A stretch of DNA of 64,000 bases, from the NCBI GenBank assembly GCA_041675505.1, contig JBAYTR010000010.1:67895-131894 (forward strand), given 5' to 3'. Each line of letters starts with the position of its first letter. The stretch's first letter is position 1. Shown here piece by piece: positions 13,199 through 35,729 of this stretch. The stretch comes from Bacteroidia bacterium (GTDB lineage Bacteria; Bacteroidota; Bacteroidia; UKL13-3). A model generated the notes under the pieces. It made no database searches. It worked only from the letters and a program-made list of their open reading frames with translations, and had not been told where the DNA came from. The position numbers and the translations under genes are program-made.

Positions 13199-13223
13199 CA
13201 GCAGCTAAGGTTGTTTAACCAAC
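13199..13223. repeat. Direct repeat, right copy (CAGCAGCTAAGGTTGTTTAACCAAC)
   Basis: Overlaps the last codons and the stop (13205-13207) of the MmcQ/YjbR gene. 23/25 identical to 12740..12764. Confidence 0.8.
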
Positions 13224-13546
13224 GCAGCCAGTTGAGCAGGTGCCACTTCGCAATAAGCTGAGGTGAGTGCAGCTGTAAACAGACGCTTGCTTACCTTACT
13301 TAGTTCCACCATGGTCCACCCTTGTTTGCCCCACTTATTGTTTACAGGATACACGATGCTTTTGTCAGCCAGTGAAAACAGGTCCTGATTTATTTCAGAT
13401 AATTTAAGGCAGGCCCTGTTGTTTTTTTCGTCACAGGTGGCAAATATTTTTCCCTTTACCCGAAAGGAAATTTTTTCAAAGTGGGCCGCTTCTGTAGCCT
13501 CAGGAAAAGAAAGTGCAATAGTTCGGAAGGCTGCTAAACTCACCAC
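13205..13546 (-). CDS. MmcQ/YjbR-family DNA-binding protein
   Basis: 113 aa. LSFPEATEAAHFEKISFRVKGKIFA...WTMVEL matches the YjbR/CyaY-like fold family as I recall it. Confidence 0.65.
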   Translation of the reverse strand: MVSLAAFRTIALSFPEATEAAHFEKISFRVKGKIFATCDEKNNRACLKLSEINQDLFSLADKSIVYPVNNKWGKQGWTMVELSKVSKRLFTAALTSAYCEVAPAQLAALVKQP

Positions 13547-13568
13547 GTGAGCAATGGTTCAGTGTGCA

Positions 13569-14180
13569 TTAAAAATTACCGTACGAGAGGAAGAACGAAC
13601 CGTTGGTAACTGTTTTCGACTGGGTACCTGTTTCGTTGTACAACTTACATGTGAAGGTGCCTTTTACATCCACATAGGTATCGCCAAAGATGCTGAACTG
13701 CTGTGTGCTGGTAATGTTAAACGTTGCCCCGCTTTGTGTACCGTTAATGCTGCTCCACACCTGTCCGGTGGCATCTACATGCAAAATTTCTACACCATCG
13801 GTAGTAGGGGTGGAATACATGTAATTTCCGGGAGCAAAATAGGCTACAAAATCAGCATCATCAGGGTAGGCACCCTGAAAGCTCATTTCACCCTTGTATA
13901 TGCTCACACCTCCTACGGTATTGTCAGAAAAAATATTGGAATAATAGTAAGCGGTAGAAAACTCAGGCAACGGGCGGGTTTCTTTACTGGAGCCGGCTGC
14001 TTGTTCAAAACCGTTTTTTCCGTCAGTGTAGGTGAGGGAACTGCCATCTACGGTAAGGGCAACATTATATCGGTTGGGAGTAGGAGTTGGGGTGGGTGTA
14101 ACGTTGTTATCATCATCGTCTTTTTTACAACCGGTAAACGCCAAAGCCAAAAGAGCTGCAGCAAAGAATAAATTTTTCAT
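13569..14180 (-). CDS. Hypothetical lipoprotein
   Basis: 203 aa with MKNLFFAAALLALAFTGC lipobox. No family recognised. Confidence 0.5.
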   Translation of the reverse strand: MKNLFFAAALLALAFTGCKKDDDDNNVTPTPTPTPNRYNVALTVDGSSLTYTDGKNGFEQAAGSSKETRPLPEFSTAYYYSNIFSDNTVGGVSIYKGEMSFQGAYPDDADFVAYFAPGNYMYSTPTTDGVEILHVDATGQVWSSINGTQSGATFNITSTQQFSIFGDTYVDVKGTFTCKLYNETGTQSKTVTNGSFFLSYGNF

Positions 14181-14357
14181 ACGTATTAAAATTTAGGTAA
14201 GACAAAAATATACTTTTTGGGATAAAAACCACAGGGAAGTGCAAGTTTTTTGAGGGAGCTGTTGTGTTGCCTTTCTGTTTGATAATTTGAAAGAGACCTT
14301 GTGGTTGCTGTTTGCTGAGCGTTTATTTAGGTAGGGTATTATTTTAGCTATAAGCTA

Positions 14358-14390
14358 CATAAAAGAAAAGCGTAGGCGCAACCTACGCTT
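14358..14390 (-). terminator. Rho-independent terminator closing the island operon
   Basis: Perfect 9-bp stem AAGCGTAGG/CCTACGCTT (14368-14376 / 14382-14390), followed on the minus strand by TTCTTTTAT. It lies 70 nt downstream of the permease stop at 14460. Confidence 0.65.
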
Positions 14391-14459
14391 AGGTTGACCT
14401 CCCATAATTCATACATGTGGCATAATGCTTTATTCAAATCATTATTTGCAAGCTGCTTT

Positions 14460-15242
14460 TTATTTCCATTTCAGAAGTGTCTTTTCAAAAAGATAAATGA
14501 TTCTCGAAAACAAAAGAGCCAAAAGAATTATGCAGATTACAGCAGCCAAAACCAACGAAACATCATAAGTTCCACCAGCTTTAAAAACCCTATGTCCCAA
14601 ACCTTCGTGGGCTGAAATAAATTCGGCAATGAAGGCACCAAGTAAAGCAAAACTAATGTTCAGTTTAAGCGAATTAAAAAGCCAAACCAATGAAGAAGGC
14701 ACGATTAGTTTTGAAAATATCTGCGTCCGTGATGCTCCAAAGGAGTGAAACAGTTTTATTTGTTGAACATCAACTTGTCTTGCACCTTCATAGGATTGAG
14801 TGATTGCAATTACTACTGTTGAAAGTGCAGCCATTATAACCTTTGCATACATACCAGTTCCAAACCACATTATCATCATAGGTGCAATGGAAAAAATTGG
14901 AATTGCTCCAATTGCAATGATGTAAGGTCTTGTCAAGTCAGCAACTCGTTTTGAATACCAAAGGGAAAGTCCGATTGCTGCACCGCAAATGTTGCCAATT
15001 AGAAAACCATAAATCGCTTCCTGTCCTGTAATAAAAATGTCCCTTGGTAAAATACCATTGGAGATGTTTTCAATCAGCGAATGAAAAACTTTGGATGGAG
15101 AAGAAAACAAAAAGAGTTTCTTTTCAGTAGTTGAAATTACAAACTGCCATAACAGCAAGAAAACTGTTAATGGCAACAAACCCAAAATGATACTTATGAT
15201 TTTTCTTTTCATTGTTCGTCTTGCTTTGGAAGTGATTGCCAC
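14460..15242 (-). CDS. ABC transporter permease, NitT/TauT (SsuC/TauC-like) family
   Basis: 260 aa, multi-TM, with an EAA-loop-like FGASRTQIFSKLIVPSSL. Overlaps the upstream ATPase gene by 34 nt. Confidence 0.8.
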   Translation of the reverse strand: MAITSKARRTMKRKIISIILGLLPLTVFLLLWQFVISTTEKKLFLFSSPSKVFHSLIENISNGILPRDIFITGQEAIYGFLIGNICGAAIGLSLWYSKRVADLTRPYIIAIGAIPIFSIAPMMIMWFGTGMYAKVIMAALSTVVIAITQSYEGARQVDVQQIKLFHSFGASRTQIFSKLIVPSSLVWLFNSLKLNISFALLGAFIAEFISAHEGLGHRVFKAGGTYDVSLVLAAVICIILLALLFSRIIYLFEKTLLKWK

Positions 15243-15970
15243 ATTTCAGTAAAGTATTTAGAAAACTTTTGGTCTTGCTTAACTGAAATTGGACTTCTCT
15301 TTTCTACATCAAAAGTTATCTGTAATTCCTTGAATGTTTCGTTTGGCTTGTGATTAAAAATTATTGTCCTATCGCTTACTGTTATTGCTTCATCAATGTC
15401 GTGAGTAATCAGTAAAACAGTTTTGTGATTCTCTTTTGACAAAGCATGTATTTGTGCTTGTAGTTCAAGCCTCGTGTTGTAATCAATTGCTGAAAATGGT
15501 TCGTCCAAAAGCATTATTTCAGAATCTAACATCAGTGTTCTGATAAGAGCAACTTTTTGTCTTTCACCGCCTGAAAGTTGTGAGGGATAACTATGAACCA
15601 AATTTGAGATGCCAAAGCGTTTCAAATACTGCATTACATTTTCTTTTGTTGAGGAATTTATTTTGCCTTGAATTTCAATACCGACAATTATGTTTTGATA
15701 AACTGTTTTCCAAGGGAGCAATAAATCCTTTTGCATCATGTATGCTATTGCAGTTCTCCTGTCTGCAATGTGGTCAAGTTTTACTTCTCCGCTATATTCA
15801 TTGTCAAGTCCGATTATCAAGTTGAAAAGAGTTGTTTTCCCACAACCATTTGGCCCCAAAATGGAAACAAACTCCCCTGAACGAATAGTGAGATTGAGGT
15901 TTTTAAAAACCTCAACGTTACCCGTTGGAGTGCTAAATGACTTGGTTATGTTTTTTAACTCAATGTTCAT
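15209..15970 (-). CDS. ABC transporter ATP-binding protein (SsuB/TauB-like)
   Basis: Walker A GPNGCGKTT, signature LSGGERQ, Walker B MLLDEPFSAID. Confidence 0.85.
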   Translation of the reverse strand: MNIELKNITKSFSTPTGNVEVFKNLNLTIRSGEFVSILGPNGCGKTTLFNLIIGLDNEYSGEVKLDHIADRRTAIAYMMQKDLLLPWKTVYQNIIVGIEIQGKINSSTKENVMQYLKRFGISNLVHSYPSQLSGGERQKVALIRTLMLDSEIMLLDEPFSAIDYNTRLELQAQIHALSKENHKTVLLITHDIDEAITVSDRTIIFNHKPNETFKELQITFDVEKRSPISVKQDQKFSKYFTEMWQSLPKQDEQ

Positions 15971-17514
15971 TAGTGCTTGACAATTTCCTTTTGTGCATTT
16001 GTAACTCTTGATTTTGCAAATGTCGCTTTAGAATAAATTTGATTAAATATTTTATAGCAATATGTTTCTTCTTTATCTCTCAAGGAAAATTGAGAATTGT
16101 TTTTTTGAATGTTTTGATATTCTTCTTCACTCAAATTGTTGTTTGCAAATTCATGTAGCAAACCCTTTCCTCTTTCAACGCCTCCAATTCCAGCCCCTTC
16201 CATCAAAGTCATTTTCTCTCTCGAATAAATGTAGTCAGGCAATAAATCTTTAAATGCTTCTCTCAAAACAAACTTTGTTGTTGTATCTCCTGTTTTTGTC
16301 TTTGCCACTTTTAAAGACGGATGAATGCTCAAAGCATATTCAACTAAAGTTCTGTCAAGAAAGGGTTCACGAACTTCAACGGCATATTTCATTCCTGTTT
16401 TGTCAACTCTCAAAAGTTGTGTCCTGTATAAATCGTTTAGAAGATTTTTAATTTCATTTTGAAATTCTGTTTCATCAGGAAGGGAAAGAAAATCACCATA
16501 GCCGCCAAATATTTCATCGCTGCCCTCGCCACACAAAACAATTTTGAAACCTTTGTCGTGTGCTAACTCTGCCAATTTCATTGAAAGTAAAGAGCCACGA
16601 ATAGGATTTGGTTCAAATGTCTCAATGGAATAAATCACATCAGGAACATTTTGAAGCAAATTTTCTTTGCTTGTTTTAATATGATGAAACTTCAAATTCA
16701 AATCATTGCAAAGTCGCTTTGCATAAATCACGTCTTCGCCTGAATCTTCACCGACAATTAAAGCTGTAACATCATTGTGATAACTGCAACACAATAAATG
16801 AACTATTGAACTGTCAATGCCACCACTTAAAAAAGTAGCAATAGGCAAATCTGTTTCAACTCTTTTCTTTACAGCCAATTCAACAAGTTCACGAACATTA
16901 TTTGTAATTGTGCTTACTGAATCAGTATTCCATTTTGTGCTTGGCGTTTTATAATACTGGAAAACTCCTTCATTGGTTATGTAGTGTGCTGGTTTAAGTT
17001 CTTCAAATGTTTCTACTTCCAAATCAGTAAAGGATTTCATTTCAGAAGAAATATAAACTACATTCTCACTCTTGCAGTAGAAGAATGGTTTCACTCCAAA
17101 AAAATCTCTTGCTCCGAAAAACTTATTTTGAACGGAATCATAAATTAGAAATGCAAACATTCCTTCTAACTGCTGCAAGAAATTTATTCCGTGTTCTTCA
17201 TAAAGATGAACCAAAACTTCTGTGTCGCAATCTGAAATAAACTTGTGTCCTTTCATTTGCAATTCTGATTTCAAATTTTTGTAGTTGTAAATCTCACCGT
17301 TAAAAACAACTCCTATTGTTTTGTTCTCATTGAAAAAAGGTTGTGTGCCATTTGGTCTGTCAACTATTTTAAGGCGAACACTTCCTAAGATTGAATTTCC
17401 TATTTGAACTTGTTTAGGTGCAGTATCTCCCCGATGCTCAATTTTTTTGAGCATAAACTCCATTTCTGTTTTGCCTTTTGGAGTAGGATTAATAATTGCT
17501 GCGATACCACACAT
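15970..17514 (-). CDS. Asparagine synthase (glutamine-hydrolysing)-family enzyme, AsnB-like
   Basis: 514 aa. MCGIAAII (class II amidotransferase Cys2) plus PP-loop FLSGGIDSS. Its stop and start overlap the ATPase gene by 1 nt. Confidence 0.8.
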   Translation of the reverse strand: MCGIAAIINPTPKGKTEMEFMLKKIEHRGDTAPKQVQIGNSILGSVRLKIVDRPNGTQPFFNENKTIGVVFNGEIYNYKNLKSELQMKGHKFISDCDTEVLVHLYEEHGINFLQQLEGMFAFLIYDSVQNKFFGARDFFGVKPFFYCKSENVVYISSEMKSFTDLEVETFEELKPAHYITNEGVFQYYKTPSTKWNTDSVSTITNNVRELVELAVKKRVETDLPIATFLSGGIDSSIVHLLCCSYHNDVTALIVGEDSGEDVIYAKRLCNDLNLKFHHIKTSKENLLQNVPDVIYSIETFEPNPIRGSLLSMKLAELAHDKGFKIVLCGEGSDEIFGGYGDFLSLPDETEFQNEIKNLLNDLYRTQLLRVDKTGMKYAVEVREPFLDRTLVEYALSIHPSLKVAKTKTGDTTTKFVLREAFKDLLPDYIYSREKMTLMEGAGIGGVERGKGLLHEFANNNLSEEEYQNIQKNNSQFSLRDKEETYCYKIFNQIYSKATFAKSRVTNAQKEIVKH

Positions 17515-17518
17515 TTTA

Positions 17519-18322
17519 TTATTTTTGTTCTTCTTTATTAAAATTTGAAAACCAAGGTCTGCTTCTTATTCCTTTACGAAAAGAGTAAATCTGTAAACTC
17601 GGAAGGTCGGGGGCAATCAATTCTTTTTCTTCATCCGATGTGTATGTGAGAAAAACATTTTGAAAAAAATTCTTTTCTACATACTGCTTTTCAATTTGAT
17701 TCATTGTAATGTAAGCATATGCCGATTCATCAGTTGAATTAAAACGCAAGTCGCCAAAAATTTGATTGTTTGAATATCTGTAAGAATGTTTACCTGCTGA
17801 TTTTTTTAAAAGTTCAAATGATTCTCTACCTTTTAAAAACTCTGGTATGTTATGACTTCCATTCTCATTTATAATTGCATTGATTAATGCATTCATGTCT
17901 TTTAAGTGATGTGATTTTGCAAAAGGCATTAGCACTTCGGACATGAGAACATGTGTGTAATTGAATTCATTTACAACGTTTCTTATCCCTTTGAAATAGC
18001 TTTTGTAATCTTCGGGCTTATAGCCATTAAGCATTGCATGTGTGTCAGTAAAAATTAATGTTAGCTGAGCATCCAATTTGTAATGCTTTTCAATAACTCG
18101 CAGAAAACCGAAAAGATTTAGCAACGCATCAAAGTCGTATTTGTCGGGGTACTTTTTATCGGATGCGCCCCAATATGAAATGAAACGAATATATTTCTTG
18201 TTATGCTTTACTCTTTCATTAACATACTTATCTAACTCCGCAATTTGTTTCTTGCGAACCTCAATCTTTTTTGCTGCTAAAAAAGAGCCGATTGTTTTTC
18301 CGTTTCGCAAATTGCTATTCAT
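17519..18322 (-). CDS. Hypothetical 267-aa protein; possible remote DIT1/PvcA (isonitrile synthase)-like fold
   Basis: The coding call rests on its tight operon position. The function is tentative. YIRFISYWGASDKKYPDKYDFDALLNLFGFLRVIEKHYKLDAQLTLIFTDTHAMLNGY parallels the remembered DIT1_PvcA pattern (PAFPxKS..PDxAE..L..L....I...Y.PGA...I.SDG.VF.DL). LQIYSF...RPWF parallels RLSIH...TPWH. Confidence 0.4.
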   Translation of the reverse strand: MNSNLRNGKTIGSFLAAKKIEVRKKQIAELDKYVNERVKHNKKYIRFISYWGASDKKYPDKYDFDALLNLFGFLRVIEKHYKLDAQLTLIFTDTHAMLNGYKPEDYKSYFKGIRNVVNEFNYTHVLMSEVLMPFAKSHHLKDMNALINAIINENGSHNIPEFLKGRESFELLKKSAGKHSYRYSNNQIFGDLRFNSTDESAYAYITMNQIEKQYVEKNFFQNVFLTYTSDEEKELIAPDLPSLQIYSFRKGIRSRPWFSNFNKEEQK

Positions 18323-20189
18323 TGCGATAAAAATATTTGCTTTCGTGTTTTAGTTTAAACAATTCCCGTGAAGACAAAAAAACAATAACTAAACAAATTA
18401 AGAAACAATAAAAAATATAATTGCCATATTTAATTGTATGTAAAACTTCTTTGTATTCTATAGGGTCGCTATTCGGAACAACTTCTTGCCTTGCAAATTC
18501 ATGTTTCAATTCATCTAATTTTGGAGTTTTAGGATGTAAAATGTGAAACATACTTGATGTAATCTCAAGTAAAATAAATAACGAGCCTATAAAGTAAAGT
18601 AACGTGGGTTTTCTTACATGCTTCCATAATGAACTTTCTATAAACAGTCGAAAGTTTTCAACTTTATTAGTGAACAGTTTTAAGAGATATAAAAAGGGCA
18701 ACAATGGTGTTAAAAATATTCGCCAACCTGCCCACTTTTTTGTGTGTAACGTTTTTCTTTCAAGTTCAAAATAATGCTTTTCATTTTGACGATATTCAGC
18801 TAACAAATCATCAGCTACGAACAAACTGTAATCAATAGTTTGAGGAACAGGTATGCCCTCAGCCCTATATCGCAAAAGCGTTAATTCTTTCAAATCATCT
18901 TTAATCGGATTAGTTTTTGAGTAATACAAATTGCCAATATCTCTCCACTCTCTTAATCTATCTACATAGTATTTAAGAATTTCTTCAAGTGAAAATTTCT
19001 CTTTTTTATTATTGATAAGAAACTGGATATAACTTTTAATAGTTTCATCTGCGATTAAGAGGTTAAGCAATTCGTCTTGGGTATCATCATCATATTTGAG
19101 TTTTGTTTTCAGAAAGTGAATTAAGCCCGTTGTATCGCTTTTCTTTAGATACGAATGAATTCTGTGTAAATTTTTATCAATGCCGTAGAGCAACCCTTTA
19201 AGTTTTTCTGAATTTTCAGGTGCATTATTACCTAAGATGCCCGTAAACATGAAACTTTGATCGTTGTCATACGCTAAGTTTTCTAATTCAATAATTTTTT
19301 TGTTTGCTTCTCCATTATGCTTATCAAGTAAGAAATCAATACTTATAAAATCACATGAGAATGAGACAGAATTATTGCAATAGTCATCGTTATCTACTTC
19401 TTCGTCAATGGTTCCATTATTTTTATATGTTTTTTTACTTACTTTACGAAGTTCATATCCAAAATCTTTTCTTTCTTCTACCAATGTAGATGTAGATGTT
19501 TTGTATTGCTCATAATAGATATGACCAATACAAAATCCTGTTGAAGGAGTATCATAACAGATGATTGATTGAGTAATATTTTCTTTTCCGTATTGAGACG
19601 GAAAATTTTGTGGATTCTTATATAATCTACCTAAGTCATTAGACGAACTAGTTAAATCTCCACTTCCTACAGCCAGAAAAGCAATTTTTGAAACTAATCC
19701 ACCAATAACCTTTGTATTGGTTTTTAATATTTTCTCTTTAAAGAGGTTTACCCCATTCTCTTTAAAGACTAAATTGTTACTATTGTCAACATCTAAACAT
19801 TGTGAAAGATTGAGATTAAACTCTTTATTACAAATATCTTTCTTTGTTTTAATGTCAAGCAAGTCCTGAAACTTTTTAAGTTCTGCTTGTAGCTTGGTGG
19901 CATCGCAATGGTTCAAATAGATAAGATGAGATGGGTCGCAAATGGCTGCGTCTGCTAAACCAAGCAAAACGGAAAAGGTTGCAAATCCATCACCCTTTAA
20001 TTTCTTGCTCTGGTCAAACCTGAAATCATTTTTTGTTCCAATTATAACTACTTCTAATTCCGAAAATGGTGTGTCATGGAAATCATTGCCATAGTATGCA
20101 ACATAAAATGGAAGGTATAATACCGTGTCAGTTGATACGGCAATTTCAAGTTTGTCTTTTGTTCGTATGGAAGAAAATCCTGAATCCAT
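18315..20189 (-). CDS. 624-aa membrane-anchored protein: N-terminal type-2 binding-protein-like domain with no signal peptide, plus three C-terminal TM helices
   Basis: N-terminal VLYLPFYVAYYGNDF and FSVLLGLADAAICDPSHL align with YLIYLPFYIAQEKGFF and ATVLKGEAQFGIGDPVF of the adjacent binding-protein gene. Hydrophobic helices fall at about aa 487-506, 529-551 and 590-607 (nt ~18369-18731). Confidence 0.5.
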   Translation of the reverse strand: MDSGFSSIRTKDKLEIAVSTDTVLYLPFYVAYYGNDFHDTPFSELEVVIIGTKNDFRFDQSKKLKGDGFATFSVLLGLADAAICDPSHLIYLNHCDATKLQAELKKFQDLLDIKTKKDICNKEFNLNLSQCLDVDNSNNLVFKENGVNLFKEKILKTNTKVIGGLVSKIAFLAVGSGDLTSSSNDLGRLYKNPQNFPSQYGKENITQSIICYDTPSTGFCIGHIYYEQYKTSTSTLVEERKDFGYELRKVSKKTYKNNGTIDEEVDNDDYCNNSVSFSCDFISIDFLLDKHNGEANKKIIELENLAYDNDQSFMFTGILGNNAPENSEKLKGLLYGIDKNLHRIHSYLKKSDTTGLIHFLKTKLKYDDDTQDELLNLLIADETIKSYIQFLINNKKEKFSLEEILKYYVDRLREWRDIGNLYYSKTNPIKDDLKELTLLRYRAEGIPVPQTIDYSLFVADDLLAEYRQNEKHYFELERKTLHTKKWAGWRIFLTPLLPFLYLLKLFTNKVENFRLFIESSLWKHVRKPTLLYFIGSLFILLEITSSMFHILHPKTPKLDELKHEFARQEVVPNSDPIEYKEVLHTIKYGNYIFYCFLICLVIVFLSSRELFKLKHESKYFYRNE

Positions 20190-20191
20190 AT

Positions 20192-21205
20192 TTAATTTGT
20201 CTTGGTATCTGAAATAGATTTTTCGGCAAAGGAATTATCTACTGCATCTGATGTTGGTTTCATTTCCTTCATGTCGCCTATATCAACTCTTACTTGTATC
20301 GCTTTCTGCCAAGCTTCATCACTCATTACAGCATGGTCTGGAATTGTTTTATCTGCTACCATTCTTTTTACAGCATTTGCAACAACTGCTTTGTCAAGGT
20401 TGGGGAAAAGTTTTGCTGCAATTTCTGCCGTTCCTGCTTCATCTGTGTGGCAATACTGTAATGCCTTTTCAATTGCGTTTACAAATTTTTGAACAGTTTC
20501 CTTATTGGCGTTTATGTATTCCTCTGTCGTTGTTAAGCCAGTGAAAGCAAATCTTCCATAAAACTGCGGTGAGGAGTAAACAACTTTGTAACCTTTACTT
20601 TCAGCTATTGATGTTCCTGGTTCTAAGTCCATCGCAATATCGGCACTTCCATTTTCAAGTAAAGCCAACTGTGAACCAATTGGGGCTTGAACAATGATTG
20701 TGTTTTTTAATAAATCTCCTCCTTTCATGAGTGTCTTTTTCATCAAAGCGTAATTTGTTGACGGGTCGGGGAATGTTCCAACTTTCAAACCAGCCAAATC
20801 ACCAGGCTGTTCTATGGTTTTGATGTTATCCTTGTTTGTTACACCCCAAATTGTTACTCCGTCAACGATGGAACCAATTACTTTTCCTTTTGCTCCTTTC
20901 TCTCGTGATATGGCAGTGAATACAGGGTCGCCAATTCCAAATTGTGCTTCGCCTTTCAAAACGGTTGCAAAAACCTGGTCGTCATTACCTGAAAACTTTA
21001 CAGTAATTTCAAGTCCTTCGTCTTTGAAAAAACCCTTCTCCTGTGCAATGTAGAAAGGTAGGTAAATTAGATACTTCTCTTGTCCCCACTGCGCTACTAT
21101 TACTTTGGTGACTTCGGTGGTTTTTGGCTTTTCAGTGTTGCATGAATTGCATCCTCCCAAAATGATTGTGAGAACCAGTAATGCTGCTAAAACTATTTTA
21201 TTCAT
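20192..21205 (-). CDS. ABC substrate-binding lipoprotein, NMT1/THI5/SsuA-like
   Basis: 337 aa with MNKIVLAALLVLTIILGGC lipobox and LPFYIAQEKGFFKDEGLEITV, typical of NMT1/SsuA-type binding proteins. Confidence 0.75.
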   Translation of the reverse strand: MNKIVLAALLVLTIILGGCNSCNTEKPKTTEVTKVIVAQWGQEKYLIYLPFYIAQEKGFFKDEGLEITVKFSGNDDQVFATVLKGEAQFGIGDPVFTAISREKGAKGKVIGSIVDGVTIWGVTNKDNIKTIEQPGDLAGLKVGTFPDPSTNYALMKKTLMKGGDLLKNTIIVQAPIGSQLALLENGSADIAMDLEPGTSIAESKGYKVVYSSPQFYGRFAFTGLTTTEEYINANKETVQKFVNAIEKALQYCHTDEAGTAEIAAKLFPNLDKAVVANAVKRMVADKTIPDHAVMSDEAWQKAIQVRVDIGDMKEMKPTSDAVDNSFAEKSISDTKTN

Positions 21206-21261
21206 TTTGACGGTTTTAATTGCTATTTTATATTGTAAAGATAGTTATTCACTCGATAAAT

Positions 21262-22788
21262 TCAACAATTGCTTCCCTTCTCAAAAAGTGTTTTCCAAAG
21301 GAATGTATCAAACAATTGTGCTAAGTTGTAAGTCAAAAACAAAAATAAAGTTCCTCCCAATAGTATTGCCAAAAACCATTTCCAAAGGTTGCTGTAAATT
21401 TTGAGTTTGCCATCAATGAATGCTACATCAGCATTGAATTCTTTATCATTATTAAGGATTCTCTGAATGTCTTCTTTTTCTAAAAGGTCAGTGTAGCGTT
21501 CTTTCAAATTTGTGTAGCTGTCAACGAATCTTTTGCGTTGCTCTTTCACTTCCCACTTTGCTACTAAGTAATAAAGGAATGAGCCGAACAAAAAAACAAT
21601 TGAAAGAACTGCTGTGTCAAGTGTAAACACATTTACAAAATCTCCATTGCCCAAAACTTTTATTGCGATTGCAGAAAAGTAAAAAGTGATTAGCGCCAAA
21701 GAACTTTTTTGAAAACCACTTGCAAATGTTTCAATGACTTTGTTTGCTCTGTTGTTGAAGTCAAGCAACTGGTCAGAAATTTTATTTCTGATTTCAATGT
21801 ATTGCTTGATGTTCTGCTTCTCGTAAACTTTGTAACTTGATTGAATAGATTGAAATGGATGCCCTTTCAATTCTAATTCACCACTATTTTCAAAGTGAAG
21901 TGAAATAATGTTTCTGGCTAAACCAATTTTATCATTGAGGTTTCCGCCACAATAAACCCAATTGTATATATTGAAATATTCTTTCGTTCCATCTATCGGC
22001 AATGCTTTTACATCAACTTTTCCTTTGATTGATTTATAACCGTTGATTTTAAATTCAAGTTCGTTGGCTTTTAGCGAAGTAATGTCAAACAAATAAACAA
22101 CGGAAAGCACAACAGCATAATGATTGAAAAGCAAACACAGCTTGCTGTGTTTTGCATTTTCAATTTGCAACTGAAAATCATCAGGCGTTAAGTTGTGTTC
22201 TTCAATGTTGGTGTAATTACTTGCTGAAAGAATGCTATCAAGGCGTTTATGCCTGTCAGCAAATGTTTGAGTAGGTGTGGTAGCACCTATTTGTGTAAAG
22301 AAAATATTTGCTGTATTGAATGGCTTGTCAAGATTCAACACTTTGAAGTTTACAAAAGGTGTGTTTGATAAAACACGATTGAAAACCGCATACGCTTCTG
22401 CTACTGACAAACTTTCAAGTGTTGCTGTGAAGATTTCTAAATCATATATAGAAATATTGTTTGAAATATTTCCTTTAGTGATTTTGAAGGTTGCTGTGAT
22501 TGGTTCGCCTTCCTGATGCAAATATTCCTTATCAAGTTCAGTTTTGAAATCGGTAAAATTTGAACTGGTTGAATAAAATGATTTTGGGTCGGCTTCTCCA
22601 AATTTGATTGTGAATGTTAATTGGTCGTTAGGCTCTAAAAAGTTGTAGGCGGTTTGAATGCTTGCAACCTCTGTCGATGAAAAGTTTGTTGCTGACAATT
22701 CACAAATAAATTCTTTGTCATTCTCTGAAACAGTTGTTTGAGAATAAGTAGAGAAAAAAGAGTGAATGAATTTATCAGCAAATTGCAT
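21262..22788 (-). CDS. Hypothetical 508-aa protein: ~360-aa unrecognised soluble domain plus a C-terminal 2TM-linker-1TM anchor
   Basis: No signal peptide. Hydrophobic helices fall at about aa 362-380, 390-411 and 467-490 (nt ~21319-21705). The start ATG overlaps the upstream stop (TAATG at 22786-22790). Confidence 0.5.
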   Translation of the reverse strand: MQFADKFIHSFFSTYSQTTVSENDKEFICELSATNFSSTEVASIQTAYNFLEPNDQLTFTIKFGEADPKSFYSTSSNFTDFKTELDKEYLHQEGEPITATFKITKGNISNNISIYDLEIFTATLESLSVAEAYAVFNRVLSNTPFVNFKVLNLDKPFNTANIFFTQIGATTPTQTFADRHKRLDSILSASNYTNIEEHNLTPDDFQLQIENAKHSKLCLLFNHYAVVLSVVYLFDITSLKANELEFKINGYKSIKGKVDVKALPIDGTKEYFNIYNWVYCGGNLNDKIGLARNIISLHFENSGELELKGHPFQSIQSSYKVYEKQNIKQYIEIRNKISDQLLDFNNRANKVIETFASGFQKSSLALITFYFSAIAIKVLGNGDFVNVFTLDTAVLSIVFLFGSFLYYLVAKWEVKEQRKRFVDSYTNLKERYTDLLEKEDIQRILNNDKEFNADVAFIDGKLKIYSNLWKWFLAILLGGTLFLFLTYNLAQLFDTFLWKTLFEKGSNC

Positions 22789-23825
22789 TAGCTATTGCCG
22801 TTTTGTCTGTTGCTGAAATATTGATAGCCTTGTTCCGATTTGATTTTCACATATCTTGTTCCGTCTGCATCTTTTTCCGCTGTGATTATTGTTTCAAGGT
22901 TCGGAATATCTTCTTTCAAGTGCAAATCAATTTGGCTTGTCAAGGGGATAGTGTTTAGAAATTTTGCCCTAATCTTTGCCTTTACAATCGTGAACTGTTC
23001 GTCAAAAGGTGTTCTTGGTTTTGATGGCAATTGTCGGATTTGAGTTTTGATTTCTGCAACATCAAGGTTGGAATCGAAGGGAGTGTAGTTTCCAATTGCT
23101 GTGTCCAAATACTCTTGCATGTCAAAATTGTCGTTGGCTCTGAAATAGCGAACGGTGCTATTACGCAAATGCAAATAATCTTGTGGGTGTTTCTTTTTCA
23201 GTTTTGTAAATATGCCTTTGTCAATTGCTTCAAAAGCATTTTCTGTATTGTCCTCGTCTGAATAAACTTTGGTGAGTTCTAAAAAATCTTTCCACCAATA
23301 ATGAGAAAGGTTTGGATTGGTGTCATACACCAAAACATTAGTTACAGTTTGGTCGCTGTTTAGCGAACAAACAAATGCTTTGAAAACCTTTTTCTTTAAT
23401 GGAAGTCCTCTTGAAATAGTAAAATTTATTTCGTTTAAGAAATCGCTGTGGTCTGCTTTACAGATTACAAGTTTGTTGACGCTGTTTTCTGTTACCAATG
23501 CTTGAACAACAATTCCCTTTTGAATCTCAACTCCAAGTTTCAACATTTTTGCTTGTGCCTCTTGCTCTTTCTTCAAAAGTCGTGTTACTATTGTTGATGC
23601 AATTGCAGGAAATTCTTCACCTGCAATAATTTTCGTAATCTGTCCTCTTACTTCTGTTGTGTCGCTGTCAAACTTGAAGTTTCTACCACTGCTGCCTGTC
23701 GTAATGAGATTTACCAGTCCTTGCAAGTATGTGTTGAAGTCAGCACCATAAATTGATTGCTCAATTGATTCAACCGCTTGTTCATGAATGTCAACCTTAA
23801 ATATTTGTATGGCTGTTATGTCCAT
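22788..23825 (-). CDS. NdpA/YejK (Pfam NA37)-like nucleoid-associated protein
   Basis: The ORF track starts at GTG 23891, but ATG 23825 (MDITAIQIFKVDIH...) is the likelier start. The layout (EEFPAIASTIVTRLLKKEQ, IQKGIVVQALV, VICKADHSDFL, LVYDTNPNLSHYWWKDFLEL) matches my recollection of the NA37 family. No HMM search was run. Confidence 0.5.
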   Translation of the reverse strand: MDITAIQIFKVDIHEQAVESIEQSIYGADFNTYLQGLVNLITTGSSGRNFKFDSDTTEVRGQITKIIAGEEFPAIASTIVTRLLKKEQEAQAKMLKLGVEIQKGIVVQALVTENSVNKLVICKADHSDFLNEINFTISRGLPLKKKVFKAFVCSLNSDQTVTNVLVYDTNPNLSHYWWKDFLELTKVYSDEDNTENAFEAIDKGIFTKLKKKHPQDYLHLRNSTVRYFRANDNFDMQEYLDTAIGNYTPFDSNLDVAEIKTQIRQLPSKPRTPFDEQFTIVKAKIRAKFLNTIPLTSQIDLHLKEDIPNLETIITAEKDADGTRYVKIKSEQGYQYFSNRQNGNS

Positions 23826-24303
23826 GTTGTATATTTTAAAATGTGAAAAATTGTTGGTTAACGGGTGCTGATAAAGCGTTGGCGATTGCACACTTTTGAT
23901 TTCGCCTTTGGGTTGGCTTGTACGTGAGCTGCAAATGCAAATGTGTACTGGTGTTTTTTGTTTTCCAGCTGAAGCGTTTACAATTCAAGGAGGTGTCGTT
24001 GGTGTCAAGTTTTGTCAAAAAGTTCATTTTTCATCTGTCAGTTTAATGTTAACACTGTTGCCATAGGGTTTCCGGCAGCTTTTTTATATGCGAAGGTTTG
24101 CCTGGTTTTGTAAATATATCAATTTGCTCATAACTCTTCAAAAAGGGGGTTGTTTTTTGAATACTTTGTGATGTAAATCGCTTTGAAAATCTTGGCCAAT
24201 TAGGCCACGGGAATTTGCAAGACAGGTGAACAGGTTAGGTTGCATAGCATATTGGTTTTCAACGGCAAATTAGAAGGTTTTTTATTACTGTGCAAATTTA
24301 TTA

Positions 24304-24410
24304 TTGTGCTCGCATTGGGAGACTGCTTCTCCCGATAGCCATCGGGTCTCGGTGGCATTGCTTTTTGGGGTGCCGCGCTAGGCTCAATAAGACGTTTCTT
24401 TTTTGAAGAG
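24304..24410. repeat. Intergenic repeat unit, copy 1 (starts TTGTGCTCGCATTGGGAGACTGC, ends GACGTTTCTTTTTTGA)
   Basis: Both ends are shared with the unit at 24514..24612. The interior contains nested hairpins (GAGAC...GTCTC and CCCGAT/ATCGGG). Confidence 0.5.
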
Positions 24411-24513
24411 AGATAGACTTTAAGCACATCGTCTTTGCGATGAACTTCTGGGTAGTGTGTTGGGTAGTCAAGAAGCAAACTTTAGTTCAGGGAAGCAACC
24501 TCCTATTACAACT

Positions 24514-24612
24514 TTGTGCTCACATTGGGGGACTGCCACGGGCTCTCATCACACAGGCTAAGCTTCGCCCTCGCAGTGACGTTGGTTTTGACAGTGACGT
24601 TCTTTTTTGAGT
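24514..24612. repeat. Intergenic repeat unit, copy 2 (starts TTGTGCTCACATTGGGGGACTGC, ends GACGTTCTTTTTTGA)
   Basis: 21/23 identity with copy 1 at the 5' end and a conserved 3' end. AGTGACGTT occurs twice internally. Confidence 0.5.
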
Positions 24613-24627
24613 GCCTTTGAAGTAATG

Positions 24628-25035
24628 TTACTTCATCTCCTGGCACAACTCAATCAGTACTCCGTTGGTGGCTTTGGGGTGCAGGAAACAAATGAGTTTA
24701 TTATCAGCACCGCGCTTGGGTGTTTCATGGATAAATTGAAATCCGGCTGCTTCTAAACGGGTTATTTCTGCTTCAATGTCTTCTACATCAAATGCAATGT
24801 GGTGTATGCCCTCGCCTTTTTTCTCAATAAATTTTGCAATGGCACTGTCGGCTGAGGTGGCTTGCAGCAACTCTACTTTGCTTTCTCCGGTTTTAAAAAA
24901 AGCGGTGATTACGTGTTCGCTTTCCACGCCCTCTTCTTTGTAGCAGGGTGTTCCCAAAAGTGCGGCAAACAGGCTTTTGGATGCTTCTATATCTTTAACG
25001 GCTATGCCCAGGTGTTCAATCTTGCGTAAATTCAT
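24628..25035 (-). CDS. Methylmalonyl-CoA epimerase / VOC (glyoxalase)-family protein
   Basis: Likely start MNLRKIEHLGIAVKD at 25035. HLGIAV...GEGIHHIAFDV...LHPKATNGVLIELCQ is the typical epimerase pattern. Confidence 0.75.
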   Translation of the reverse strand: MNLRKIEHLGIAVKDIEASKSLFAALLGTPCYKEEGVESEHVITAFFKTGESKVELLQATSADSAIAKFIEKKGEGIHHIAFDVEDIEAEITRLEAAGFQFIHETPKRGADNKLICFLHPKATNGVLIELCQEMK

Positions 25036-25671: not shown

Positions 25672-28533
25672 ATGCGCCAACATTTACCTTTTATTTTCTT
25701 ATTGCTGTTTACACTGAGCCGTAGTTTTGTGGCGGCACAAACGGCCAAAACGGGCACCATCAGTGGTAAGGTGGCCGATAAAAAAGATAAGTCGGAGTTG
25801 GTGGGCGTAAACGTAGTCATTAAAGGCACCAAGCTGGTGGCTCAAACCGATATTAACGGAAAGTTTGAATTCAAGAACGTAAAAACCGGGGAATACACGC
25901 TGGAGTTTACCTACATAGGCTACGAAAAAATTGTATACACGGGAGTAAAAGTAAAAGAAAACCAAACCACCACCATTGATATTCAAATGGGCAGCAGTGC
26001 CGCCACCATTGACCAGGATGTGGTGGTAATAGGTCGCAGGCCGCTGGTTGACATTGAGCGTCCGCAAAGTAACAACACGGTAAGTCAGGAGCAGATTGAA
26101 TCAGCACCCGTGAGGCAATTGCAGCAAATCATCAACACACAACCCGGTGTGGTTACCACGCCCTCGGGGGTGCACATTCGTGGTGGCCGCACGTATGAAA
26201 CAGGGTATTTTGTAGATGGTGTTTCGGTTCAGGATCCCTTGTCGGGCACAGGTTTCGGGTTAGACTTGGGCAGCAATTCGCTCTCTTCCATTGATGTATT
26301 AACGGGTGGTATAGGAGCTGAGTTTGGTAATGCTACCTCAGGCGTGGTAAATGCCAAAACAAAATCAGGCGGAGATAAACATGACTTTGCGGTGTTGTAC
26401 AAGCGCGATAACCTGGGTTTTAACCAACAGTGGAAATCGGTATTTAATACACAGGTGTTGGAATTGGGCGGAGGTGGCCCGGCTATGAAAAAACTGCTCA
26501 ACAACAAGCTGAAGTTTTACGCCTCACTTCGCACGTATTTCACTGATGACTATTTTAAAAACCCTGCGAAGCAACTGCACTCTTCTTTGTTTGAGAACGA
26601 AACCTTTTTTGCGCCTTATCAGGACAACCGCTGGTCGGCCTCACTCAAAATGAACTACGATGTTTCCAATAAACAGAAGTTAGCGTTTACGTATTTGCGT
26701 TCGTTCTCCATTAACCAGGACATGAACAACCTGCGCATTACCGGCAACGATGTACCGTATTTACCCGGTTATCCGTTTTTGTTTTCACAACAAATGGACA
26801 ATGCCAATACGTATACCAACAGTTCTAACCTGATGGTGCTTAGCTGGACCGAATTTTTATCCAAACGTTTCTCCTACAAAGCCACCGTTTCGCGTTTGTT
26901 TATCAAACAACGTACGGATGCCAACGGCCGCGACTGGAGACCCAAAACTGTTGACGGAGAATTTGACCCCAATTCCATTGTAACGTATCCGGTTATTCCG
27001 TTTAACCCCGCAGATAGTGTGGTGTTTGTAAATGCACCATCGGGCTTTTACAACAACGGAGGCATAGCCACCCTGTGGCACGATCACTATGTAGAAGAAT
27101 ACACCGTAAATGCAAATGCAACGCTTTATTCAAAAAATACCTTTAACAAACTCACCTTTGGTGTGGAGCAGGTGTTACAGGATATGCAGTGGGTGGATAT
27201 TCGCAGGCCCTGGGTAGGTGCGCCTATTCCTTTGCCTGACGGCACTTACTCCCAGTCTTTCCGTTTAGGAGATTACAGCGATTTGTGGAAAGTAAAACCC
27301 CGCAAAGGCGCCCTGTTCATCAACGACCAGATAAAATACAAAGGTTTAATTGCCAACGTGGGCGCACGTTTTGAGTACTGGGCTCCGGGAAAATTTGTAG
27401 ACGATGCGGTAAAAGATTCCCGCTCACCCATACGCGATGAAATACGCAGTGAGTACAACAGCAGTACCGTTAACTTTTTAGGTCTGCGTCACAAGTTCCG
27501 TTTTTTGCCCCGGGTGTCGGCCAGTTTTCCCATCAAAGAAAACCAGATGTTGTTTTTTAACTACGGGCACACCACCAAAATGCCGCACCCTTCCTTTTTG
27601 TATGCCGGTTTAAATCCGTTGTATACCGACAGGTCAACCGCCAGTGTGTTGGGAAATCCTAACCTTAATCCGGAGGTGGCCATTTCGTATGAACTGGGTT
27701 ACCGTTCGCAAATTACCTCCAACGATGCCATTACCATCTCTGCCTTTTGGGTAGATAATTACGATTTCATCTTGCGTGTACCCATTTTGGTAAAAGATGT
27801 AACCGGCAGAGAAGTACAACGCACCATGGCCATTAACTCCGATTACTCGCGTAAGCGTGGCATTGAAGTAGGTTACATCAGACGCATAGGCAACTGGTTT
27901 ATGGGGCAGGTGAGCGGAAACTTTATGGTGGCCACGGGACAGAGTGCTTCGGCCTCTGAAGCCTTGAAAGAAATTTTAAACACCGGAGCTGCGGAAGACA
28001 CCCGTGAGTTTTTTATGCCCTGGGATACCCGCTTTGACGTGAAAGCCAATGCCTTGTTTAAGGTTGACCGCAAAGGCGGATTGTTCGGAGCCGGATTTTT
28101 AAACAAGTGTTCCTTCTATTTGGAGAATGTGTGGCGCGCAGGTCGCAGGTATACGCCCTATGTACTGGAAGGTTACGAGCCCATTACCGGCAGGCCCATT
28201 TGGGTGCAGGACAACCGTCCGGAAGCCCGCTGGAGTAAGATTGGGCAGAACTGGTTCTGGATAGATTTTAATTTCCGCAAGTGGTACGACTACAAAAAAG
28301 TAAAAGTAGCGTGGACCATTGAGGTAACCAATGTGTTGAACAATAAAAACTCAGCCATTATCAACCCGGTAACCGGCAGGGCCTACACCTCGGGCGATGA
28401 TGTTCCTACGGAATGGCGCGACCCCCGATACAATGACCCCCGCGACCCGCGCTCATCAGGCACCCCACCCAACGACCCTTCGAGGTACTTGCAGCAGCGC
28501 AACTATCTTATAGGCCTGGCCGTTCAGTTCTGA
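25672..28533 (+). CDS. TonB-dependent outer-membrane receptor with N-terminal CarboxypepD_reg domain
   Basis: 953 aa: signal peptide, GTISGKV...GVNVVIKGT..TDINGKFEF, a plug region, a long beta-barrel, and a terminal aromatic residue (..GLAVQF). Confidence 0.85.
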   Translation: MRQHLPFIFLLLFTLSRSFVAAQTAKTGTISGKVADKKDKSELVGVNVVIKGTKLVAQTDINGKFEFKNVKTGEYTLEFTYIGYEKIVYTGVKVKENQTTTIDIQMGSSAATIDQDVVVIGRRPLVDIERPQSNNTVSQEQIESAPVRQLQQIINTQPGVVTTPSGVHIRGGRTYETGYFVDGVSVQDPLSGTGFGLDLGSNSLSSIDVLTGGIGAEFGNATSGVVNAKTKSGGDKHDFAVLYKRDNLGFNQQWKSVFNTQVLELGGGGPAMKKLLNNKLKFYASLRTYFTDDYFKNPAKQLHSSLFENETFFAPYQDNRWSASLKMNYDVSNKQKLAFTYLRSFSINQDMNNLRITGNDVPYLPGYPFLFSQQMDNANTYTNSSNLMVLSWTEFLSKRFSYKATVSRLFIKQRTDANGRDWRPKTVDGEFDPNSIVTYPVIPFNPADSVVFVNAPSGFYNNGGIATLWHDHYVEEYTVNANATLYSKNTFNKLTFGVEQVLQDMQWVDIRRPWVGAPIPLPDGTYSQSFRLGDYSDLWKVKPRKGALFINDQIKYKGLIANVGARFEYWAPGKFVDDAVKDSRSPIRDEIRSEYNSSTVNFLGLRHKFRFLPRVSASFPIKENQMLFFNYGHTTKMPHPSFLYAGLNPLYTDRSTASVLGNPNLNPEVAISYELGYRSQITSNDAITISAFWVDNYDFILRVPILVKDVTGREVQRTMAINSDYSRKRGIEVGYIRRIGNWFMGQVSGNFMVATGQSASASEALKEILNTGAAEDTREFFMPWDTRFDVKANALFKVDRKGGLFGAGFLNKCSFYLENVWRAGRRYTPYVLEGYEPITGRPIWVQDNRPEARWSKIGQNWFWIDFNFRKWYDYKKVKVAWTIEVTNVLNNKNSAIINPVTGRAYTSGDDVPTEWRDPRYNDPRDPRSSGTPPNDPSRYLQQRNYLIGLAVQF

Positions 28534-28628
28534 TAAAAAGAGTCGCATTAAACCGCGTATTTTCCACACGTTTACAATTTTTTAACAAGGGATAGCTAAT
28601 ATTGCAGTTCAATTAATTCTTTAAAAAG

Positions 28629-32990: not shown

Positions 32991-33006
32991 CCTGACTAAT
33001 ACAGTA

Positions 33007-33045
33007 TAAAAAAGGTCTCCTGATTAATTCAGGAGACCTTTTTTA
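33007..33045. terminator. Bidirectional rho-independent terminator between convergent genes
   Basis: A-run, then a 10-bp stem GGTCTCCTGA/TCAGGAGACC (33014-33023 / 33029-33038), then a T-run. Confidence 0.75.
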
Positions 33046-33068
33046 TTTAGTGCTGAACTAGTGTTAAC

Positions 33069-33521
33069 TTATGTGAGTAGTTTTTCAAAGCACACACTAC
33101 TTTCCACATCGGCATATTGGCCATAGTTTTTGATAGTAGTGTAATTGTTCTTTTGGTATAAGCGAATGGCTTCCGGTTGTTTTTTACCGGTTTCCAAAAT
33201 GCATTTTTGGTAGCCCAACTCTTTTGCCCAATTTTCCAGTTCACCTAAAACTATTGATGCAATTCCTTTACCTCGTTTTTCTAACGGAACAAACATTCTT
33301 TTTACTTCCATTACATTCTCCTCATACTCTTTTATTGCGCCACAGCCCACAGCAGCTCCCTCTTCATAAGCCACTACTACGTGTTTAATAGCCGCAATTT
33401 TGTTGAACTGAGCAAAAAATGCATGGTCCTCTCCATCCCGTATGGCAAGGTCTTTATCCAGCGCAGTTACTAATTTTTGAAAATCTGAATTGTCAGAATC
33501 GGTTCTTTTAATTTTGTACAT
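33069..33521 (-). CDS. GNAT-family N-acetyltransferase
   Basis: 150 aa with RGKGIASIVLGELENWAKELGY (acetyl-CoA binding motif A type). Confidence 0.8.
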   Translation of the reverse strand: MYKIKRTDSDNSDFQKLVTALDKDLAIRDGEDHAFFAQFNKIAAIKHVVVAYEEGAAVGCGAIKEYEENVMEVKRMFVPLEKRGKGIASIVLGELENWAKELGYQKCILETGKKQPEAIRLYQKNNYTTIKNYGQYADVESSVCFEKLLT

Positions 33522-34126: not shown

Positions 34127-34152
34127 TATTCACTCAAGTTCAGTTCACAGAT

Positions 34153-34863: not shown

Positions 34864-34952
34864 TATATTTTCATTTAACGCGATGGATACGTAAAGGAAT
34901 AACCGCCTCGTCTTATCAGTCAGTAAAGATATAATCCACACCCATTAAAAAA

Positions 34953-34990
34953 TAAAAAAACCCCGAATTTCTCCGGGGTTTTTTTATTTT
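34953..34990 (-). terminator. Rho-independent terminator (hairpin flanked by A and T runs)
   Basis: CCCCG...CGGGG stem (34961-34978) flanked by AAAAAAA and TTTTTTTATTTT, downstream of the gene ending at 35027. Confidence 0.55.
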
Positions 34991-35026
34991 ATAGCAAGAA
35001 GGCTCGAGAAGCATTAGAGAAGGGCG

Positions 35027-35611: not shown

Positions 35612-35729
35612 AAAAATATGGTTTAATATAGGCAAGATAAGGAATTGTCGTAACAAAAAGCAATAAGAATAAAGCAAACAAGCCCACTGTTTTTGCAGCG
35701 GGCTTGTTTAGCAGCGGATGCTGAAACGA

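Follow-up and report, generated by a model that had tools for sequence, protein, structure and literature searches.

The 64,000-nucleotide stretch of DNA analysed here, which we call the window, comes from a metagenomic contig of 197 kb that belongs to a Bacteroidia metagenome-assembled genome (MAG). This report concerns a block of eight minus-strand open reading frames in it, g1 to g8, that has a low guanine-plus-cytosine (GC) content and lies between a lipoprotein gene and mce (Table 1). The block is horizontally acquired cargo in a strain-variable hotspot that starts at the mce stop codon, and it consists of two unrelated modules, the gene pair g8-g7 and the six-gene cassette g6-g1. The cassette is a binding-protein-dependent importer coupled, both genetically and evolutionarily, to an enzyme with an isonitrile-synthase fold (g4), a carboxylate-adenylating amidotransferase (g3) and a second binding-fold protein (g5).

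Table 1. Features of the window discussed in the text, with lengths of proteins in amino acids (aa)
Feature	Position	Strand	Basis or remark
Lipoprotein gene, conserved flank on the side opposite mce	13569..14180	-	89% identical in L089
Strain-variable low-GC accessory segment (hotspot cargo)	14227..24627		homology limits in relatives, GC
Intrinsic-terminator-like hairpin, end of cassette operon	14368..14390	-	10-pair stem, 5 GC pairs, T-run
g1, ABC importer permease (BPD_transp_1, NitT/TauT type), 250 aa	14460..15212	-	PF00528, 99 bits
g2, ABC ATPase, 253 aa	15209..15970	-	PF00005, 114 bits; overlaps g1 by 4 nt and g3 by 1 nt
g3, glutamine-dependent amidotransferase, distinct AsnB subfamily, 514 aa	15970..17514	-	Pfam GATase_7 and Asn_synthase
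g4, PvcA/IsnA isonitrile-synthase fold, 267 aa	17519..18322	-
g5, NMT1/TauA/NrtA-fold domain, then helical region and C-terminal membrane helices, 624 aa	18315..20189	-
g6, lipoprotein substrate-binding protein (NMT1/SsuA family), 337 aa	20192..21205	-	Pfam NMT1, 106 bits
g7, second gene of pair, three C-terminal membrane helices, 508 aa	21262..22788	-	homologues, hydrophobic helices
g8, first gene of pair, weak similarity to NA37 (nucleoid-associated protein), 345 aa	22788..23825	-
Hotspot motif copy B, GCAGTCTCCCAATGCGAGCACAA	24304..24326	-	two matches in 64 kb, 0 expected
Hotspot motif copy A, GCAGTCCCCCAATGTGAGCACAA	24514..24536	-	same 23-nt motif pair
mce, methylmalonyl-CoA epimerase/glyoxalase-fold gene; stop codon is the conserved hotspot edge	24628..25035	-

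The first-pass annotation of this DNA had reported a sharp drop in composition together with five hand counts of GC (21/60, 20/60, 27/60, 28/60 and 32/60), all of which proved exact on recount, and the full profile bears the drop out. GC per 1-kb bin is 0.31-0.38 over 14001-24000 and about 0.44 elsewhere in the window, with a mean of 0.345 (standard deviation 0.026) for the 10 bins inside against 0.436 (standard deviation 0.033) for the 53 outside (Mann-Whitney p = 7.7e-7). The stretch 14227-24228 as a whole has a GC of 0.345, the lowest non-overlapping 10-kb bin outside the block stands at 0.419, and GC at third codon positions is 0.26-0.35 in the eight genes of the block against 0.45-0.55 in glmS, the lipoprotein gene, mce, the gene of the IscA-like protein beside it and that of a TonB receptor. 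The close packing described earlier, with gaps of at most 56 nucleotides (nt), is seen in the junctions, which measure -1, 56, 2, -8, 4, -1 and -4 nt from g8-g7 to g2-g1, and the terminator placed at 14368-14390 was recovered by a terminator scan with its 10 pairs and T-run. Scans of the whole window for tRNAs and against Rfam gave no match, repeat searches found no att-like direct repeats flanking the segment, and the last 24 nt of mce occur once only, in keeping with the earlier statement that tRNAs and clean att repeats are absent.

Some boundaries changed. The start of g8 had been placed at a GTG at 23891, and the gene call and the homologues make the ATG at 23825 (345 aa) the most likely one; the start of g1 is most likely at 15212 (250 aa). 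With g8 starting at 23825, the non-coding stretch up to the mce stop codon is 802 bp long, not about 700 bp as first given, and it carries the two copies of a 23-nt motif listed in Table 1. Likewise the low-GC block itself stood, and its edges, first drawn at 14400 and 24200, moved to 14227 and 24627 on comparison with relatives.

A strain-variable hotspot holding two modules

The IscA-like protein beside mce is identical in many other contigs, and nine of these relatives (L098-L106), with a nucleotide identity to the window of about 92-93%, were compared. Homology to the window ends at 24627/24628, that is, at the mce stop codon, in seven of the nine, and in L100 and L106 it runs on to 24456, with 24229-24319 covered as well. 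What follows mce differs between these strains: L098 and L099 carry AIPR, cytosine methylase and HATPase genes, L101 a type I restriction-modification system in fragments, L105 a HindVP-type restriction-modification pair, L100 and L106 DUF5131 and SUKH-4 genes, and L103 the core genes YebC and RecR. A tyrosine integrase lies immediately beside mce in L102 and L104, at the site of the window's hotspot. None of g1-g8 is present at the mce site in the nine relatives, and the only likeness is a distant set of ATP-binding cassette (ABC) and NMT1 genes in L102. The description of the block as accessory is therefore upheld, since the relatives carry other cargo past mce. The set in L102 (2119-5341, in the same hotspot) comprises an NMT1 binding protein, fragmented permease and ATPase genes and a methyltransferase, and it looks degraded; as a possible copy of the cassette it was rejected, its proteins being just 21-31% identical to those of the cassette.

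On the opposite side the limit comes from L089, a short metagenomic contig with 84% nucleotide identity that matches 13206-14226 only and has different small genes upstream of its lipoprotein gene. The variable segment is given as 14227-24627 because the homology of L089 stops at 14226 and the relatives diverge at the mce stop codon. Two small genes, of 134 and 125 aa, occupy L089 221-1021, where the end of the cassette would be, and by eye the 125-aa protein is a candidate DUF86/HepT-type toxin. An empty site with mce directly beside the lipoprotein gene was not found among the relatives, which have more than 9 kb of other cargo or are rearranged (L103).

The two motif copies of the window have counterparts of 21-23 nt (GTGCTCACATTGGGGGACTGC and variants) that occur once each in L100, L102, L104 and L106, within about 100 nt of the mce stop codon (at 9288 in L100 and L106 and at 9318 in L102 and L104). 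In L102 and L104 the motif sits between mce and the tyrosine integrase gene. It is absent elsewhere in the sequences compared, being confined to the vicinity of the mce stop codon in the window and four relatives, and is a candidate for the site at which the hotspot recombines. No integrase was found among the window's own copy of the cargo, and we infer that cargo enters the mce site by site-specific recombination and that this copy has lost its integrase. The first-pass annotation had offered no account of how the block was acquired; the integrase beside mce in two relatives and the motif found twice in the window narrow the question. The site is like known defence islands and hotspots in its fixed position by a core gene, in its strain-variable cargo, which includes restriction-modification, AIPR and integrase genes, and in its low GC. 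It differs from them in that the window copy has neither an integrase nor flanking direct repeats, and in that neither of its modules matches a catalogued defence system. Its interest lies in being a precisely bounded hotspot, at a stop codon, where close strains swap defence cargo, with a candidate recombination motif and, in relatives, an integrase.

The eight genes had been proposed as a single candidate system, and this part of the proposal did not survive comparison with other genomes. The genes g6-g1 (14460-21205) recur as a six-gene cassette in a fixed order (binding protein, 600-640-aa protein, g4, AsnB-like protein, ATPase, permease) in Bacteroidota and in a Zixibacteria MAG (L014). 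The same six genes are found on contigs with wholly different flanks, and also in a Cellulophaga MAG and in the Zixibacteria MAG, and the order is kept down to 31% identity of g4 and into this second phylum. Neither g8 nor g7 is ever present at the cassette loci L003-L014. Nucleotide similarity between cassettes starts about 40 nt inside g6, whose protein aligns from its first residues, and stops at the g1 stop codon, and the GC of the cassette is below that of its flanks in 8 of 8 other loci. Homologues of g7, by contrast, number more than 353 and are spread over Bacteroidota. Wherever their surroundings were inspected, the gene comes after a g8 homologue and there is no cassette; the pair was seen in L085-L088, and GmrSD, RlaP, DUF6602 and similar genes are its neighbours. 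The pair recurs without the cassette and the cassette without the pair, which speaks against one system.

Taken overall, the earlier observation is confirmed and its interpretation is supported in part, as the block is accessory and includes an undescribed system but is not one system. The novelty belongs to the cassette: a search of 5.8 billion clustered proteins at E <= 0.001 gave only 24 close g4 clusters, none of them named, and literature searches on PF05141 or isocyanide synthases with adenylating enzymes in bacteria gave no description of the cassette. The remark that four of the proteins lack a confident family also holds, since g4, g5, g7 and g8 all fall below every curated threshold.

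Importer, enzymes and a second binding-fold protein

A single operon encodes binding protein, permease and ATPase (g6, g1 and g2), whose Pfam scores are all above the cutoffs. The product of g6 has a signal peptide and a lipobox (LGGC), and its nearest solved structure is 3qsl (1.4e-15). It is also the best conserved gene of the cassette, with 65-84% identity across cassettes compared with 31-84% for g4 and 27-55% for g5, and g1 is 55-81% identical in other cassettes. The three parts, with the NMT1 fold in the binding protein, BPD_transp_1 in the permease and an ATPase of the ABC kind, are like those of the NitT/TauT importers (SsuABC, TauABC, ThiXYZ and NrtABCD/CmpABCD). Unlike these importers, the cassette meets no equivalog threshold, its second binding-fold domain is a separate membrane-anchored protein that is not fused to the ATPase, and two enzymes lie inside the transporter operon. 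None of the equivalogs that stand for substrate classes (SsuABC, TauABC, NrtABC, ThiXYZ and SaoXPA) was reached, with SaoP at 114 against a cutoff of 295 and SsuA_fam at 69 against 163, and the best NCBIfam matches of g1 (SaoP, SsuC and TauC) are all far under their cutoffs. SaoX, SaoP and SaoA, which are parts of a selenoprotein-linked operon (bioRxiv 10.1101/2022.07.06.499078), were the best NCBIfam names for the ABC parts; with scores far under the cutoffs, this lead was dropped.

The second binding-fold protein, g5, is without a signal peptide. Its N-terminal domain matches in fold NMT1, TauA, NrtA and the cytoplasmic CmpBCD regulatory domain, and an NMT1-fold binding protein of Parabacteroides is in the PDB as 3hn0. 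Of the cassette genes it evolves fastest, with 41% identity to its counterpart in L003, whereas g6, g4, g3, g2 and g1 are 79-84% identical. In comparisons with L003, L005 and L006 the N-terminal ~95 residues of g5 are conserved, while both sequence and length differ in the middle and at the membrane end.

The fold of g4 matches PvcA and PIsnA. Against Pfam PF05141 the protein scores 17.9 bits, under the gathering score of 26.4 (E 0.0024), and several members of its family give weak PF05141 matches in the same region. A profile of 83 family members, searched against the PDB, has PIsnA as its best sequence match (E 1.6e-4 over about 70 residues) and PvcA at E 2.4, and the same alignment pairs the invariant D93-x-H95 of g4 with the S-D-G-H of IsnA. 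The close g4-family profile alone did not reach PvcA in the PDB; the 83-sequence profile was needed. With a remote sequence match and a sub-threshold Pfam score, g4 is a predicted enzyme in a remote, new branch of the isonitrile-synthase superfamily, and not a member of the curated family. It is like PvcA/IsnA/Dit1 (PF05141; PDB 3e59, 9dh4 and 9dhm) in its fold and perhaps in the D-x-H that the profile aligns with PIsnA, and differs in being shorter (about 230-270 aa against about 310-330), in pairing or fusing with AsnB, AMP-binding and NMT1 domains, and in having invariant residues of its own (W51, N99, Y109, Y204 and P256-W257). A HMMER search of 1.84 billion representatives with the g4 profile gave 430 proteins at E <= 0.001, 9 of them below 1e-30, and among the ~430 clusters of the family at 50% identity none is named by its source and none reaches the Pfam gathering score. 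No relatives of g4 were found in IMG/VR viral contigs, INPHARED phages or PLSDB plasmids.

The family is found in other settings as well. About 60 alphaproteobacterial homologues (L015-L084; Methylobacterium, Bradyrhizobium and Xanthobacteraceae), of 25-33% identity, stand alone, and at the two such loci inspected (L015 9731-10594 and L046 9743-10648) the gene lies beside that of a Cache-(PAS)-GGDEF-EAL protein with no transporter or AsnB gene adjoining. Being without the cassette, these homologues say little about it. A seven-gene lineage of the cassette (L007 4458-5237 and 5244-6020; also L008-L010) has a second gene, of 258 aa, after g4, which is probably a diverged g4 paralogue.

The other enzyme, g3, passes the general asparagine synthase model TIGR01536 (354 against a cutoff of 267) and falls under the cutoff of the AsnB equivalog NF006949 (406 against 499); its nearest solved structure is E. 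coli AsnB (PDB 1ct9, 3e-61). Compared with E. coli AsnB and the AsnB-family tailoring amidotransferases, g3 keeps the N-terminal cysteine nucleophile (MCGIAAI), the glutamine-site residues (RLKIVD and NGEIYN), the PP-loop SGGxDS, here SGGIDS, and GEGSDE, and differs in its score below the equivalog cutoff and in an altered acceptor-site segment, with ETFEPNPIR in place of the aspartate-site segment ETYDVTTIR. Thr322-Thr323 of E. coli AsnB lie within the replaced segment and are implicated in aspartate binding. With the threonine segment replaced by E-P-N-P, the acceptor of g3 is probably not aspartate. The motif E-[ST]-[FY]-E-P-N is common to the AsnB homologues linked to g4, whether fused or separate, the exceptions being two triple fusions (P0123 and P0148).

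Fusions tie these parts together outside the cassette. The g4 family has 52 members of greater length. An AMP-binding (ANL) enzyme forms the N-terminal part of 22 of these, while AsnB is present in 11, NMT1 in 6 and CT_C_D in 2, and some of the fusions join AsnB, NMT1 and g4 in a single chain. A Patescibacteria contig has an AsnB-g4 fusion, and a Saprospiraceae MAG (L080) has a permuted cassette in the order binding protein, 540-aa NMT1-domain protein, ABC pair, g4 and AsnB. The NMT1 domain of one such triple fusion is closer to the periplasmic g6 (24% identity, E 2e-17) than to g5, which suggests that a cytoplasmic NMT1 domain may bind the same kind of ligand as g6. One triple fusion, P0123 (L107 4676-7768, AsnB-NMT1-g4), contains 17 in-frame TGA codons that its source reads as Trp, so that its host uses a recoded TGA; the open reading frame beside it has in-frame stops under table 11.

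These results bring to light a previously unnamed branch of the isonitrile-synthase superfamily that is recurrently fused to AsnB or AMP-binding enzymes and to NMT1-fold domains. They also define a compact cassette in which such enzymes sit within an importer operon together with a second, putatively cytoplasmic binding-fold protein, an arrangement of parts of known kinds for which we found no description. From the fusions one would predict that Bacteroidota, Zixibacteria, candidate-phyla bacteria and Alphaproteobacteria make a family of small products that are amides or isonitriles.

What the cassette may do

It is likely that the block combines two modules and that one of them is a cassette whose enzymes are coupled to an importer and act on a small molecule. 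The best explanation of the whole, to which we give a probability of roughly 0.55, is acquired hotspot cargo in two modules, with the cassette serving the uptake-coupled tailoring of a small molecule that has an amine and a carboxylate. In the mechanism we propose, g6 would act as an outer-face lipoprotein and capture a small anionic molecule bearing both groups, and the type-I ABC importer formed by g1 and g2 would bring it in. The NMT1-fold domain of g5 would bind the imported ligand at the cytoplasmic face of the membrane, where the protein could either hand the ligand on to the enzymes or serve as a gate on the transporter in the manner of the NrtA-like domain in NrtC/CmpC. By chemistry of the PvcA/IsnA/Dit1 type, g4 would convert the amine to an isonitrile or an N-formyl group, and g3 would adenylate the carboxylate and then form an amide using ammonia derived from glutamine. 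The outcome would be a small amide tailored in this way, and it could be an isonitrile that binds metal or acts as an antibiotic. These particular chemical steps are put forward tentatively, and we think it rather doubtful that they are correct as written. If the product is an isonitrile, metal-binding and antibiotic isonitrile chemistry would extend to environmental Bacteroidota.

A precedent for coupling an isocyanide synthase with carboxylate activation in a cluster that contains transporters is the fungal CrmA, a hybrid of isocyanide synthase (ICS) and nonribosomal peptide synthetase (NRPS) in which the isocyanide synthase is joined to a carboxylate-activating enzyme, in a copper-responsive cluster with transporters (PMC5974471). 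In bacteria, the AMP-binding-g4 and AsnB-g4 fusions are built on the same principle as CrmA and related clusters. They differ in domain order, which is reversed, with the activating enzyme N-terminal, and in having no carrier or condensation domain. The cassette itself differs in being bacterial, in having an AsnB-type amidotransferase in place of the NRPS-type module, and in its binding-protein-dependent importer.

Several observations weigh against uptake-coupled tailoring. The identity of g4 to PvcA/IsnA is 13-16%, below the Pfam threshold, and no Fe/2-oxoglutarate dioxygenase partner of the IsnB/PvcB kind was found in the cassette or its relatives. The cytoplasmic placement of g5 is predicted from its missing signal peptide, its charge distribution and the fusions. 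There is no transporter near the triple fusion P0123, so uptake is not obligatory for the enzymes, and the genes after one AMP-binding-g4 fusion encode an ABC ATPase with a permease of the FtsX type, a MacB/FtsX-type pair that suggests export rather than import. Finally, the cassette stands among defence or mobile genes in every long context, which fits defence or generic cargo alike.

Some of the same facts would be expected if the cassette were a small biosynthetic cluster that makes a secreted isonitrile or amide, such as a metallophore or an antibiotic, from an internal amino acid and uses the importer to retake the metal-loaded product. The isonitrile-synthase fold of g4, the parallel between the AMP-binding-g4 fusions and the copper-responsive CrmA hybrid, the MacB/FtsX-type pair adjoining one such fusion and the importer-free triple fusion, whose substrate can be internal, all point in this direction. 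The cassette, on the other hand, has neither an exporter nor a TonB-dependent receptor, the receptor gene at 25672-28533 belonging to the conserved flank, and the NMT1 domains fused to the enzymes resemble the periplasmic g6, suggesting that the imported molecule is the substrate of the enzymes. The high conservation of g6 is what one would expect of an external ligand that stays the same, and it is compatible with this explanation and with uptake-coupled tailoring alike. We regard synthesis with re-uptake as unlikely, though worth bearing in mind.

A role of the cassette as a new defence system against phages or competitors, in which g5 would be a sensor or specificity element and the enzymes would produce or modify a small molecule that stops infection or is toxic to the cell, is suggested in part by where the cassette is found. 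In L014 its neighbours are a complete Kiwa system (KwaA 1e-91, KwaB 5e-129) and transposases; in L003 they are a type II cytosine methylase, Vsr, HATPase and an SNF2 helicase; in L005 and L006 they are Schlafen/AlbA_2 proteins, with transposases also in L005 and an integrase arm-binding fragment in L006. In the window the cassette adjoins g8-g7, and the hotspot holds restriction-modification, AIPR and other Abi, and integrase genes in the relatives. Moreover, g5 diverges faster than its neighbours, as the comparison with L003 demonstrates, and the low GC of the cassette relative to its flanks is seen in all eight other loci. Location and fast divergence of this kind are common signs of a defence system. 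Integration hotspots gather cargo of all kinds, so that co-location is weak evidence for defence. In addition, PADLOC-DB 2.0 gave no system-level match for the eight proteins, the matches being generic ABC ATPase similarity for g2 and a SLATT-type match for g7 (E 0.005); nothing in the cassette is a nuclease, an NTPase sensor or an effector of abortive infection, its parts look metabolic, and no relatives of it were found in viral contigs. We know of no described defence system with a binding-protein-dependent importer. Defence is accordingly, in our judgement, quite unlikely. A little less credit still goes to the more specific proposal that an imported molecule would be converted to an isonitrile or amide effector at the membrane, with g5 setting the specificity, for phage defence or inter-bacterial warfare. 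Protection against phage would make the cassette a new kind of defence, and, were the effector proposal true, it would be the first defence-type system built on a binding-protein-dependent importer and the founding example of an unnamed enzyme family of ~430 clusters.

An ordinary nutrient operon, in which a sulfonate, nitrate or thiamine-precursor importer is accompanied by a housekeeping asparagine synthetase and g4 and g5 are unrelated hitch-hikers, is improbable. The ABC parts do match the SsuA, TauC and ThiY class and g3 does pass TIGR01536, but all equivalog scores are far under their cutoffs, the altered AsnB acceptor-site motif co-varies with the presence of g4, NMT1, AsnB and g4 domains are fused in single proteins elsewhere, and the cassette is rare and strain-specific. 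That all eight genes form one system, or that the region is ancient and native with an odd composition, is the least credible possibility, for although the genes are tightly packed on one strand before a single strong terminator, g8-g7 and g6-g1 are separate in every other genome examined and 0 of 9 relatives at ~92-93% identity have these genes at the site, so that it is already contradicted.

The g8-g7 pair and other variable regions

We treat g8-g7 as an independent mobile pair with a possibly defensive function. The product of g8 is a soluble protein whose similarity to Pfam NA37 (E 1.4e-4, 21.8 bits) lies under the cutoff of 24.6, and a PDB sequence search with the g8 alignment gave no match. 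Both proteins match phage protein families of unknown function over their full length, g8 phrog_30064 at 9e-35 and g7 phrog_32650 at 4e-45. The weak SLATT-type similarity mentioned above was the only PADLOC match of g7, which did not match Pfam SLATT; relatives of g7 were not found by tblastn in INPHARED phages or PLSDB plasmids. As the pair is widespread in variable regions of Bacteroidota, it could be an uncatalogued defence or prophage module.

Two other parts of the window vary as well. A second, small low-GC patch (0.365-0.39) at 34090-35722 contains a DUF2071 gene and one further gene that we could not name. The relative L103, collinear apart from this, lacks the patch, so that the window holds at least one further small accessory insertion. 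At 28529-33099 the window has one Calx-beta protein with a type IX secretion system (T9SS) tail, where L098-L102 and L104 have two large paralogues, one copy being 88% identical and the other 78%; the surface-protein region beside the TonB receptor is thus also variable.

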